In this document: in pieces, positions 6,595-12,699 of the stretch
Layout: the number at the start of each line of letters is the position of its first letter
How positions within the stretch are numbered: the first letter of the stretch is position 1
Source: a virus
Taxonomy: Duplodnaviria > Caudoviricetes
Length of the DNA stretch: 25,034 nucleotides
Virus record (IMG/VR): IMGVR_UViG_3300032232_000699
Span: 1 to 25,034 of that record
Reading direction: 5' to 3' (one strand)
Notes under the pieces: generated by a model
What the model was told of the DNA's origin: nothing
Database searches by the model: none
The model's input: the letters and a program-made list of their open reading frames with translations, nothing else
Program-made: the position numbers and the translations under genes

Positions 6595-7338
6595 TTAATA
6601 TTTTTGTATTATTAGACTTTCATCTAATACTCTGCTTTCACTTGCCTTAGATGTGTTTAATGTTTTAAAATTACCTTTATAAATCCTTTGTGCCATTATT
6701 ATCATATAAGCAATTGGATTTCCAGTTAATGACTTTCTTTTGCATCTATCAATAAAGTAAATATAGCACTCACTTTTTACTTCATCCCAACCTTTAATTT
6801 TCATTTGTGAATCTATATTATCCCAACATTGTTGCAAATATTTTTCATTCCCACTAAGATAATATTTCTTTAAAAATTCACACTTAACTTTAGCAGCATT
6901 TACTTTTGCATCACCAAAAATTTTTTTCATTCCTTTACCCATTGGACAATTAGGAGATTTTATTTTTGTTGATATATAAAAAAGTTCATTATTTAACCAG
7001 CATAAATTTTCACAATTGCAATTTGTTGGGTCGTTATCTTTAAAATAAACCTTATTATATCCATTAGGCTGTTGTACAAATTCAGTTGCTATAATTGTTG
7101 CAAGTCCTACAGATTTACTATTTAAAGTAACTCTAATTTGTTTTCTTCCAGTTTTTTTATTGACTTTAATTTGGTTAGTCAATTTAACTCCTTTTTCATT
7201 CCAAACTTCACCACGTTTACTAATAAAATAATTAGGATATAAACTTGAACGAACAGCATAAGTAGGTATTACAAAATTTTGCTTTCTATATTCTTTAATT
7301 AATAATAAAGCATCTTGATATTGTTGATTTGTTATCAT
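6595..7338 (-). CDS. HNH-endonuclease-like protein with degenerate active site
   Basis: NUMOD4-like YPNYFISKRGEVWN; HNH-like VYFKDNDPTNCNCENLCW with Phe at the usual catalytic His position. Confidence 0.65.
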   Translation of the reverse strand: MITNQQYQDALLLIKEYRKQNFVIPTYAVRSSLYPNYFISKRGEVWNEKGVKLTNQIKVNKKTGRKQIRVTLNSKSVGLATIIATEFVQQPNGYNKVYFKDNDPTNCNCENLCWLNNELFYISTKIKSPNCPMGKGMKKIFGDAKVNAAKVKCEFLKKYYLSGNEKYLQQCWDNIDSQMKIKGWDEVKSECYIYFIDRCKRKSLTGNPIAYMIIMAQRIYKGNFKTLNTSKASESRVLDESLIIQKY

Positions 7339-7763
7339 TAAATAAATTTAAAAGTGAATGATGAATGATTACGTTTGCCGTTTGCACATTGTGCAATTGT
7401 TGTTCTACTAACTCCGAGTAGCGATGCAGCTTCTGAACCACTATCGTATATCTCAACTCCGCCATAGGTATCAGTTACTTTTACTTTTTTGCAGGATGAT
7501 TTGCCCCTGGTCGTTTGTTGCGATAATTTACTTTGTATTTCTTCGGCAAAGTTTTCAGACTTGTAAACAAAGCACCAACCTTTCGTTTGTTTAAACTTAC
7601 CTTGGCATACAAGATAAATACTTTCAACTGCTGCTTTGCAATGCTCAGCAGCGTGTGTAAGGCTTTCGAATTCGTGGTAAGTTTCTTTAGCTATCTTAAA
7701 TCCTATTACTTCAACTTTTCTCATACAATTGTTTTTTAAGGTTATTAACTTTGTTAAGTCCAT
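7338..7763 (-). CDS. Tandem NUMOD1 (IENR1) DNA-binding domain protein; true start may be MRKVEV (~7724)
   Basis: Two repeats: EFESLTHAAEHC..IYLVCQGK..KGWCFVY and IYDSGSEAASLLGV..IAQCANGK..FTFKF. Confidence 0.75.
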   Translation of the reverse strand: MDLTKLITLKNNCMRKVEVIGFKIAKETYHEFESLTHAAEHCKAAVESIYLVCQGKFKQTKGWCFVYKSENFAEEIQSKLSQQTTRGKSSCKKVKVTDTYGGVEIYDSGSEAASLLGVSRTTIAQCANGKRNHSSFTFKFI

Positions 7764-10427: not shown

Positions 10428-10612
10428 ATCATTTTAAAAACGAGAGTTTAGATGCAAAAAATTACATCTGTTATCAACACAATTTTAATTCAACTGAAAA
10501 AATAAGTTTTTTTTATTGGAATAGACCTAATCTTATGAATCAAATAAACGAGTATTGTGTTGCAAAATTCACTTTAAAATTAAAGCAAAATGTCAATACA
10601 GAATCGAAGTAA
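10418..10612 (+). CDS. Hypothetical protein (64 aa)
   Basis: Tiled, overlapping ORF. Confidence 0.6.
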   Translation: MQVDHFKNESLDAKNYICYQHNFNSTEKISFFYWNRPNLMNQINEYCVAKFTLKLKQNVNTESK

Positions 10613-10952: not shown

Positions 10953-11228
10953 ATGGCAACAAATATTAGTATTAAATTAGATGTAACAAAGATTAGTAAA
11001 GAAAAGTTGTACAAAGGTGACAAAGGCACTTATTTAGATGCAACTATTTTAATGAAAGATGAACCTGACCAGTATGGTAATATTGGTATGGTAGTTCAAA
11101 ACGTAAGCAAAGAAGATAGAGAAGCTGGTGTTAAAGGTGCAATCTTAGGTAATGTGAAATACATTGCAAAGCAACTGCAACAAGCGAAATCAGTTGAAGT
11201 TGATTTATCAAGTGACTTACCATTCTAA
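10953..11228 (+). CDS. ssb: Putative single-stranded DNA-binding protein
   Basis: Compact beta-rich body (KGTYLD..DQYGN..ILGN), acidic C-terminal DLPF tail, in the same operon as ERF. Confidence 0.7.
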   Translation: MATNISIKLDVTKISKEKLYKGDKGTYLDATILMKDEPDQYGNIGMVVQNVSKEDREAGVKGAILGNVKYIAKQLQQAKSVEVDLSSDLPF

Positions 11229-11279
11229 CCTAACGCAACCTATTGCTATGAAATGGATTCTGTCATTTTTTAAGTTTGC

Positions 11280-11379
11280 AACGAAAAAGGCTTGAAGCAG
11301 GTGGGGAAATCAAGGAACTAAAGCCGATGTATATTCCTCACGCCCCACTTGCTGCAAACCAAATGTTATAAGCCGTTTT
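11280..11379 (-). repeat. attC-like imperfect hairpin
   Basis: On the + strand: AAC (11280-11282)...GGCTTG-A-AGCAGGTGGGG / CCCCACTTGCT-G-CAAACC...GTT (11365-11367), with an inner AGGAA/TTCCT stem. Confidence 0.6.
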
Positions 11380-11428
11380 TATCGTGTCCTAAAAAAATAT
11401 TTTTAATTTATTTTTGAAATTTGATTTT

Positions 11429-11453
11429 TGTATTCAAAATACATATATCTTTA
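11429..11453 (+). promoter_or_regulatory. Cassette-internal operator and -7-like box
   Basis: Palindrome TGTATT-CAA-AATACA (11429-11443) next to TATCTTTA (11446-11453). Confidence 0.45.
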
Positions 11454-11472
11454 CATTCTAAACGAAAACAAG

Positions 11473-11835
11473 ATGAAACATATACCAGACCAATACACAG
11501 TAAACAACATAGAAAATCTTGAAATACAGTTAGTAAAGATTAGTGCTGAATTAGAGTATAATAAAGCGTGGTTGTATTTGGATAACTTAGCCCATACACA
11601 AGAAACAGTTTTGGTTGATTACCTTGCTAAACACTATGGAATTGAAACTAAAATGGCTTTTGATGTAGATGCTTTTCGCAATACAAATACTGGATATTCA
11701 AGTTGTATAAACATTGTAAAAAGAGCAATATCTACCTACAAATCAAATGCAGATACAAAGAAAAATCCTTCTTGGGCAAATCAAGCATTAAAATCTGCTG
11801 CTATTGTTGATAATTACGCAAAAAATAACTATTAA
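11473..11835 (+). CDS. Hypothetical protein (120 aa from MKHIPDQ)
   Basis: ATG at 11473 in an A-rich context after the promoter; the ORF track's TTG start at 11428 overlaps the promoter. Confidence 0.7.
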   Translation: MKHIPDQYTVNNIENLEIQLVKISAELEYNKAWLYLDNLAHTQETVLVDYLAKHYGIETKMAFDVDAFRNTNTGYSSCINIVKRAISTYKSNADTKKNPSWANQALKSAAIVDNYAKNNY

Positions 11836-11838
11836 AAA

Positions 11839-12063
11839 ATGAGTGTTACAAAACCAATAAAAATAGAAAATGGCGAATGGTGGTTTAAAGGTTGTTTTAT
11901 ACAAAAACAATCACACCCTAAACTTAAACCATACTATGTCTTTAAGGACACAGATAAACAAGAAACAGTTGACGCTTGTTTTACTTTTATCGAAGCTAAA
12001 AAGCTATGCGACTTGAATGAAGTAAAAAATTATAAGCAAGGATATAAAGTTTTTCTGCAATGA
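11839..12063 (+). CDS. Hypothetical protein (74 aa)
   Basis: Starts 3 nt after the upstream stop. Confidence 0.7.
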   Translation: MSVTKPIKIENGEWWFKGCFIQKQSHPKLKPYYVFKDTDKQETVDACFTFIEAKKLCDLNEVKNYKQGYKVFLQ

Positions 12064-12125
12064 AAACACTTTTATAAATAATTGATACAACAAATGAACC
12101 TAATATTTTAAACGATATTATAGAT

Positions 12126-12308
12126 ATGGCAAAACAAACTGCTGGTGGCAAAAGAAAAAATGCAGGTCGTAAAAAAGACGAACCTAAAAAAGCAATTGGC
12201 AAAAGAGTACCAATAAAGTATCATTCAAAACTTGTAGAATTAGTAGAAAAAGAGTTGCAAAGATTAATTGAAGAAGATAATCACAACTTTTATAGAGCAG
12301 GGTGTTAG
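12126..12308 (+). CDS. Small DNA-binding protein (GGxRxxAGRK arm plus RHH-like region)
   Basis: GGKRKNAGRKK followed by AIGKRVP and a helix. Confidence 0.65.
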   Translation: MAKQTAGGKRKNAGRKKDEPKKAIGKRVPIKYHSKLVELVEKELQRLIEEDNHNFYRAGC

Positions 12309-12365
12309 TCAAAATGGCTTATAACTCTCTAATATAAGCACTCAACATTAATCAATTAATTATCA

Positions 12366-12614
12366 ATGTCAAATAATACCATATACTACGATAACGTTAG
12401 CAACGTTGTATTTGATGCCAACGGCAAAGAATATCCAATAAAAGAATATAATAGGTGCAAGTGTATTAATGTTTTAAGCAAAGAAGAACTTGAAAAAGTA
12501 ATTAGTGATGCAATACAATTTGGTATTAGCAAACAATCTTCTTTTGAAATAGGGGGAGGTAAAAATATTAAGTTAATTGATTTAACTAATGAATTTTTAA
12601 ACTCAAAACTATAA
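12366..12614 (+). CDS. Hypothetical protein (82 aa)
   Basis: Last ORF of the rightward arm. Confidence 0.7.
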   Translation: MSNNTIYYDNVSNVVFDANGKEYPIKEYNRCKCINVLSKEELEKVISDAIQFGISKQSSFEIGGGKNIKLIDLTNEFLNSKL

Positions 12615-12647
12615 ACAAAACCCCGTCAAGTAGAAACAAGATGGGGT
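12613..12647. terminator. Terminator hairpin between convergent operons
   Basis: CCCCGTC-N12-GATGGGG (12621-12646) with an A-rich left flank, i.e. a T-tract on the minus strand. Confidence 0.6.
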
Positions 12648-12699
12648 AACTGCTTATGAAAAAAACACCCTGAACATTGCTAAGGTAGCAATAAGGTTA

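Follow-up and report, generated by a model that had tools for sequence, protein, structure and literature searches.

A putative integron-like cassette with an attI-like docking site in a tailed phage, and related arrays in Bacteroidota

Introduction

The described systems closest to the one considered here are integrons, including the sedentary chromosomal forms, in which an integrase (IntI), a docking site (attI) and cassette-borne attC sites act together. According to the available text of one study (PMC7790495), the I2 insertion and single-strand recombination are both confined to integron integrases, and I2 is held to be necessary for recombination of hairpins. IntegronFinder surveys, as given in the accessible part of Neron et al. 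(10.1101/2022.02.28.482270), recovered almost no complete integrons in Bacteroidetes (see also, each again available in part, Ghaly et al., PMC8618304, and 10.1101/2024.07.02.601686). A CALIN has nonetheless been reported in the lytic Polaribacter phage P12002L, with two sites called divergent attC (Qi et al. 2023, PMC9892861). In the available text of that report IntI1 is the only enzyme tested – it recombined one P12002L site and failed with P12002L_attC1 – and the listed bottom strands carry an AAC-G...T-GTT signature; the same text names no cognate recombinase, docking site or reversed polarity.

A literature search that left subscription journals mostly outside its coverage yielded no paper describing the cassette system presented below. 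Among accessory elements of phages, morons comprise a promoter together with small accessory genes.

Here we analyse a 25,034-nucleotide fragment of a tailed phage (the window; IMG/VR record IMGVR_UViG_3300032232_000699, estimated completeness 76%), which carries portal, ERF, helicase/primase and endolysin genes. We argue that positions 11283-12325 are probably a mobile three-gene cassette belonging to an integron-like system of Bacteroidota and their phages – a cassette docked at an attI-like site and moved by a non-IntI recombinase acting in trans, most likely that of the host.

Results

The cassette and its setting in the phage genome

The cassette lies at the + strand end of the early operon, ahead of the convergent endolysin gene. 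Its parts and immediate neighbours are as follows.

10953..11228, + strand: backbone anchor gene (91 aa, phrog_24909, function unknown); the arrays of relatives fall between this gene and the endolysin gene
11240..11279, no strand: 40-base spacer private to this phage, bounded by AAC 11237-11239 and the left crossover AAC, with no match in other loci
11280..11282, + strand: core AAC of the left crossover, read as G|TT on the minus strand; the equivalent AAC is where duplicated cassettes in hosts break
11283..11364, + strand: interior of the attC-like hairpin, 82 bases, the AAC-G...T-GTT strand, with 6 versus 4 bases between core and inner stem
11365..11379, + strand: GTT arm, the cassette's own equivalent of R'' (on the minus strand), with GTT at 11365-11367
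11421..11453, + strand: match to a Bacteroidota promoter consensus (TTG...TAnnTTT) ahead of the cargo, as a pattern match only
11473..11835, + strand: cargo ORF1, 120 aa, no family; 4 homologues at 61-66% identity
11839..12063, + strand: cargo ORF2, 74 aa, no family; homologues within another cassette (L270) and in a site-free phage module (L271)
12060..12308, + strand: cargo ORF3, small basic protein with a GGKRKNAGRK motif; a second ATG at 12126 gives 60 aa (weak phrog_8312)
12311..12325, + strand: AAC arm and right crossover core, the cassette's own equivalent of R' (on the minus strand)
12326..12341, - strand: left half of the attI-like docking site, reading GTGCTTATATTAGAGA before GTT on the minus strand
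12366..12614, + strand: 82-aa ORF, no family, common to the window and L002, in the slot occupied by the recombinase gene in large phages

The architecture proposed in an earlier sequence-only reading holds at every coordinate: AAC (11280-11282) and GTT (11365-11367) bound the hairpin, and the GTT arm is the reverse complement of the distant 12311-12325 at 14/15 positions. Circularisation of 11283-12325 rebuilds a long hairpin, as that reading had also claimed, the rejoined junction folding at -23.4 kcal/mol against -15.7 kcal/mol for the integrated left junction (z -5.1 and -3.0, respectively, relative to mononucleotide shuffles). Neither the hairpin nor the inverted repeat is striking alone. 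The former is weak when set against dinucleotide shuffles (z -2.2 on the + strand, -2.0 on the - strand), and inverted repeats of 14/15 spaced within 1.5 kb number 8 in the window, where 20 shuffles gave a mean of 5.4. It is the combination that is striking: AAC-G, hairpin and T-GTT, with the GTT arm pairing with a distant AAC arm, occur together once in the window, at this cassette, never in 8 shuffled windows, and nowhere in 210,943 control bases (27 control loci). The cores had been described as the sole match to the attC consensus; the R boxes fit GTTRRRY/RYYYAAC at the cores and at 2/4 further positions.

The window holds just one hairpin (relatives have 3-6), and is thus not a CALIN-type cluster. 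As the sequence-only reading had it, no tyrosine recombinase was found in this 76%-complete record; an IntI integrase with I2 was found neither in the window nor in complete relatives. Rfam returned a single chance-level match (12615-12670), and a BLAST search with the hairpin against GenBank phages gave 19 weak and uninformative matches. Farther upstream, GTTGCAAA at 10559 partners the left flank at 10/12 positions and was considered as the sign of a second cassette; this was dismissed because the hairpin there folds weakly (-3.8 kcal/mol) and the stretch belongs to the shared backbone. Elsewhere in the window, clustered short direct and inverted repeats of AAAGTAAC lie upstream of the helicase/primase end (2416-2676) and are possibly a replication origin, and two neighbouring ORFs (6595-7763) have HNH/NUMOD1-like homing-endonuclease domains.

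Replacement of the insert in related phages

Relatives fetched with the anchor gene comprised 17 loci, of which one (L001) is identical to the window and seven are syntenic; neither L001 nor the sequencing run X1, from which the window may derive, is counted as independent evidence. The most informative comparison is with L002, which is ~94% identical on both sides of the cassette, departs from 11240 – identity ending at AAC 11237-11239 – and resumes at 12322 (AAC 12322-12325). Between these points L002 carries a different hairpin and a different gene, together with the inverted arm that belongs to this gene. A presence/absence boundary at the AAC had been set beforehand as a test, and L002 shows one at the right AAC, which supports the integron-cassette geometry with crossover at AAC. 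A contig from run X3 is identical to the window across 12322-12477 and has a third sequence before 12322.

The left side is less simple. The left flank had been taken as one half of an empty site; the 40 bases from 11240 to 11279 are private to this phage rather than conserved backbone, and are likely a cassette remnant. The predicted empty site itself was absent among 40 viral-contig loci matching a degenerate docking-site pattern. Most of these loci are chance matches, and four have a cassette chain (L002, L003, L008 and the identical L001); another, L028, looked real but was truncated. The array of L008 is docked on the TAAC of the anchor-gene stop codon (L008:6275), and identity between the window and L002 ends a few bases beyond, after another AAC (window 11229-11239).

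L003 and L008 each carry three cassettes in which every GTT arm pairs with the AAC arm that ends its own genes, and in both arrays the last cassette abuts a motif like 12326-12341. Four further relatives (L004-L007) have neither array nor hairpin. Two hairpin patterns yielded five more array-bearing phage loci, and the recurrence of a hairpin with a distant inverted repeat around different cargo, by which the sequence-only reading proposed that it be judged, is borne out around many other cargoes. A rescan of P12002L revealed hairpins of the same family with reversed cargo; the published attC2 is a terminal half-site and attC1 a true hairpin. Between 29150 and 39710 of that phage (L367, NC_028924) there are at least six family hairpins besides the two published sites, several of them heading DNA methyltransferase genes.

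A search for the circle junction came up empty, there being no excised circle or joint in the contigs of 4 runs, in which rare forms are dropped. A contig from run X2 places the start of the cassette behind different upstream DNA; together with a duplicated host pair described below, this indicates that hairpin and body can part.

Several side observations concern the relatives. Small phages without a recombinase carry a conserved ORF family of ~76 aa, without Pfam match, 33-49 bases after the docking site (L003:10499-10723, L008:7641-7865, L060:5468-5698, L028 on the minus strand and, distantly, L059 and L061); its slot is that of the recombinase in large phages, and the window and L002 carry a different ORF (82 aa). 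DNA methyltransferase-like genes are frequent cassette cargo (L003:8771-10456, L061, L062), several beginning inside or just past the hairpin.

An attI-like docking site

In order to characterise the right flank we built a profile from 15 host sites beside Bacteroidota recombinases only, each located through the partner arm, in inverted orientation, of cassette 1. On this host-only profile the right flank of the cassette ranks 1 of the 1156 GTT sites in the window. In six other phage loci the terminal site came first in four and third in one, and in L061 it ranked 71 of 221. By its likeness to these sites the right flank is a conserved attI-like docking site (12323-12341), an analogue rather than a known attI sequence. 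The hairpin's own 3' arm scores 5.9 on the host profile and the other arm -17.8, as expected if, by analogy with integrons, the folded + strand mimics the docking site.

Arrays in bacterial genomes and the unit of movement

A related hairpin pattern matched 127 stretches in 17/64 parts of the genome collection. By title, 71/79 listed loci belong to the Bacteroidota group and the remaining 8 are MAGs with other labels. One of the latter (L107, a MAG titled 'uncultured bacterium') has an array whose recombinase gene is broken and faces away from the docking site; the matches in L107 and the seven other MAGs with non-Bacteroidota titles reflect either transfer or mis-binning. Host arrays reach 20 hairpins in 20 kb and, as in integrons, have an attI-type site (or its analogue) beside the recombinase gene at the array end; cassettes likewise have attC-type R''/R' cores that pair in the cassette's own circle. 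The Bacteroidota link drawn from the window alone is thus upheld, similar hairpins and docking sites standing beside Bacteroidota recombinases.

Gene polarity is normal (integron-like) in 101/111 host cassettes. It is reversed in 17/19 small-phage cassettes and in 105/106 cassettes of recombinase-encoding phages, so that the antisense orientation of the window's ORFs, correctly noted at the outset, is the rule among phages. Evidence on the moving unit came from duplicated cassettes within single host arrays: in three pairs the hairpin sits at the GTT end and the breaks on either side fall at AAC-G, and a fourth, one copy of which abuts the docking site, is informative on the right only. Host polarity and these duplications together rule out the alternative unit, of opposite polarity, in which the hairpin would belong to the upstream gene. 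The unit first proposed is right as a rule, with exceptions: one duplicated pair (L070) shares an identical body and has a different hairpin.

Stem positions show several different pair types, and the inner stem keeps its pairing with varied sequence across sites of 81-221 bases, whichever strand is transcribed. The outer arms pair at 8.0/9 positions in the excised circle (a selected value) versus 3.5-4.1 with the local flank. In the best register the AAC (5') arm carries 2-4 extra bases at 17/19 phage and 106/111 host sites.

The linked recombinase

The sequence-only reading proposed a search for linked tyrosine recombinases, and in four bacterial genomes (G001-G004) one of the 400-aa class lies just before docking site and array. 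A match to this recombinase was present in 65/201 sampled Bacteroidota genomes at E <= 1e-45, a count that takes in some IS91-linked integrases. Among 30 sampled recombinase loci a cassette was found within 1.5 kb in 11, and in 18 once 18 loci had been extended; the same detector found none in 12/30, and found one in 1/15 control loci with other tyrosine recombinases. Long forms (350-580 aa) are mostly co-directional with, and upstream of, the docking site, and short forms (280 aa) are divergent. In three places of G003 (L193, L197, L201), and also in L104, a 300-aa tyrosine recombinase and IS91-family transposase pair stands beside hairpins, as if an IS91-type element targeted them.

The array-linked recombinase keeps the catalytic residues R-K-H-R-H-Y. 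Enzymes from two stretches score 174-183 bits on TIGR02249 (IntI) against a cut-off of 265, and 154-168 bits on the XerC/XerD models against cut-offs of 330-335; the XerA cut-off is also missed. Between the blocks aligned to 2A3V there are 25 residues versus 65, that is, ~40 fewer than in VchIntIA at its insertion. The model of the enzyme (pLDDT 83) finds its best Foldseek match in VchIntIA, the Vibrio integron integrase, with XerA next to it among the best. In a quick tree, which holds no IntI row, the family is separate from the XerC/D rows and most phage enzymes form their own clade. The extra N-terminal domain of the long form is modelled with confidence (pLDDT 93) and shows a weak resemblance at most to the HARP domain of SMARCAL1, its best Foldseek match being 4o66 (E 0.09, probability 0.82); weak DUF5710 matches occurred in 6/12, and a profile search gave no hit among PDB sequences.

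Cargo genes

Behind the promoter match lie three small genes of no known family, for which Pfam, PHROGs and the ESM Atlas offered no function; sigma-70 promoter and terminator scans were at chance. For ORF1 the identical contig L001 was the sole match among viral contigs. Relatives of ORF2 occur in 19 metagenome loci. The GGKRKNAGRK motif makes the ORF3 product a likely DNA-binding protein; ORF3 has an in-frame TAA at codon 6 (12075-12077), its homologues in L270 and L271 being intact. From its sequence the cassette appears to come with a promoter of its own and with a gene for a small regulator.

The L270 cassette is built in the same way and carries a hairpin, arms and a docking site of its own; L271 holds genes 86% identical to those of L270, free of sites and amid structural genes. 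From this pair the cargo looks like phage morons that may have been captured into cassettes.

Discussion

The mechanism by which such cassettes might move can be framed by analogy with IntI, whose recombination mechanism is the basis of the steps proposed here. The free cassette would be a circle whose + strand (AAC-G...T-GTT) folds into a form whose 3' arm is a mimic of the docking site. A cut in one strand at AAC would be followed by exchange with the docking site in its double-stranded form, leaving a junction for replication to resolve. Insertion would split the site, carrying the hairpin to the head of the genes and the partner arm to a position beside the docking site, so that the newest cassette would adjoin the docking site. 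In phages the reversed polarity would keep the cargo co-directional with early transcription.

A central issue is the source of the enzyme. That a recombinase acts in trans was part of the sequence-only reading, and this much stands, since neither the two complete relatives with arrays (G006 and G008) nor P12002L was found to encode a recombinase; what did not stand is the neutral target, the right flank being an attI-like docking site. A provirus (G009) and G010 have one distant PF00589 match each. On balance the enzyme is probably supplied by the host: because hairpin and dock resemble those beside Bacteroidota recombinases, small phages likely borrow the enzyme to swap accessory genes. Alternatively the same cassette system could draw its enzyme from co-infecting large phages, which encode a short recombinase of about 266 aa – in our estimate an unlikely source. 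A single long-recombinase query retrieved no viral relative and an alignment query found them; among the best 80 viral loci with the family, 43 carry cassettes near the gene, mostly directly upstream, and their cassettes are reversed, as in the window. Their hairpins are often about 80 bases long (the 82-base class accounts for 56/146 in recombinase-encoding phages and 5/166 in hosts), and the window's docking site scores 7.7 on a profile of 19 sites from such phages. Yet the same site scores 9.1 on the host profile, and 6/7 small-phage terminal sites are higher on the host profile, the seventh being about equal. Moreover, the 25 arms nearest to the window hairpin include 20 from hosts, 5 from small phages and none of the 146 from recombinase-encoding phages, a result biased because the host hairpin set was chosen with a pattern drawn from small-phage hairpins. 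Co-infection would also be rarer than infection of an enzyme-bearing host. The hairpin arms and the scores of the docking sites thus favour the host, and hairpin length and polarity favour phages.

The remaining alternatives concern the nature of the sites. It is quite improbable that movement occurs by double-stranded, Xer-like recombination with the hairpin acting as RNA (a terminator, processing or translation signal). The enzyme is indeed Xer-like and without I2, to which, with single-strand recombination, the available text of PMC7790495 gives no place beyond integron integrases, and 7/17 phage cargo genes start inside the hairpin. But arms that pair just in the excised circle, an inner stem maintained irrespective of the transcribed strand, and a modelled enzyme whose closest structure is an integron integrase all speak for a folded substrate. 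We consider it very improbable that the sites are relics, the insert having arrived by homologous or illegitimate phage-phage recombination and moving no longer; the internal stop in ORF3, the site-free module of L271 and the lack of a circle in the contigs would be in keeping with this, whereas three different sequences meet a single docking site at an identical base and the arms remain 14/15 complementary. Finally, the view that this is a classical CALIN, whose cassettes were taken up from an IntI integron and are processed by IntI, is largely refuted and has scarcely any probability left. The AAC-G...T-GTT strand is that of the bottom strands of Qi et al., in whose available text (PMC9892861) IntI1 recombined one P12002L site; that working site, however, is the terminal half-site and the true hairpin, P12002L_attC1, failed. 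Array-side enzymes fall short of the IntI cut-off, and it is the AAC arm that has the extra bases, the reverse of the arrangement in aadA7.

The reading that we favour – a mobile cassette served in trans – thus points to a system that departs from IntI integrons in three defining respects: an integrase with I2, extrahelical bases on the 3' arm, and gene polarity. With an enzyme that lacks the I2 insertion and falls below the IntI cut-off it is integron-like in its working and not an integron by definition. It may well be, with roughly even probability, a second, undescribed kind of integron in Bacteroidota and their phages, one whose recombinase handles folded single-stranded sites without I2, and from which small lytic phages with a host-type dock use the host enzyme, with reversed polarity, turning morons into cassettes. 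If so, an I2-less enzyme running common arrays would revise both the near-absence of complete integrons from Bacteroidetes and the view of I2 as the innovation behind hairpin recombination, and would constitute a naturally occurring form intermediate between Xer and IntI. Phage biology would gain a concrete route for accessory-gene exchange, and pairs of the L270/L271 type, a module with and without sites, make the question of cassette origin testable. The value of this one-cassette, enzyme-less window lies in a base-exact swap and a host-type docking site.

Set against known systems, the locus shares with integrons a tyrosine recombinase, a docking site and an array; outer arms that pair just in the circle, crossover at AAC/GTT, the AAC-G...T-GTT strand signature and VchIntIA as closest fold are further likenesses. 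It differs in that the recombinase lacks the ~40-residue IntI insertion and, in its long form, carries an additional domain at the N-terminus and usually runs in the same direction as the array; that 2-4 extra bases lie on the AAC arm, whereas extrahelical bases in integrons lie on the GTT arm (e.g. aadA7); and that outer arms are 12-15 bases long and phage cargo is reversed. With the P12002L CALIN it has in common integrase-less attC-like sites in a Bacteroidota phage. With XerA, XerC, XerD and NCBIfam NF040815 it shares the catalytic residues and the lack of an insertion, but its recombinase falls below all curated cut-offs and is linked to cassette arrays. Like phage morons it combines a promoter with small accessory genes, and a relative of the module stands without sites among structural genes in L271; unlike morons, the module here is bounded by recombination sites and swapped at one base position.
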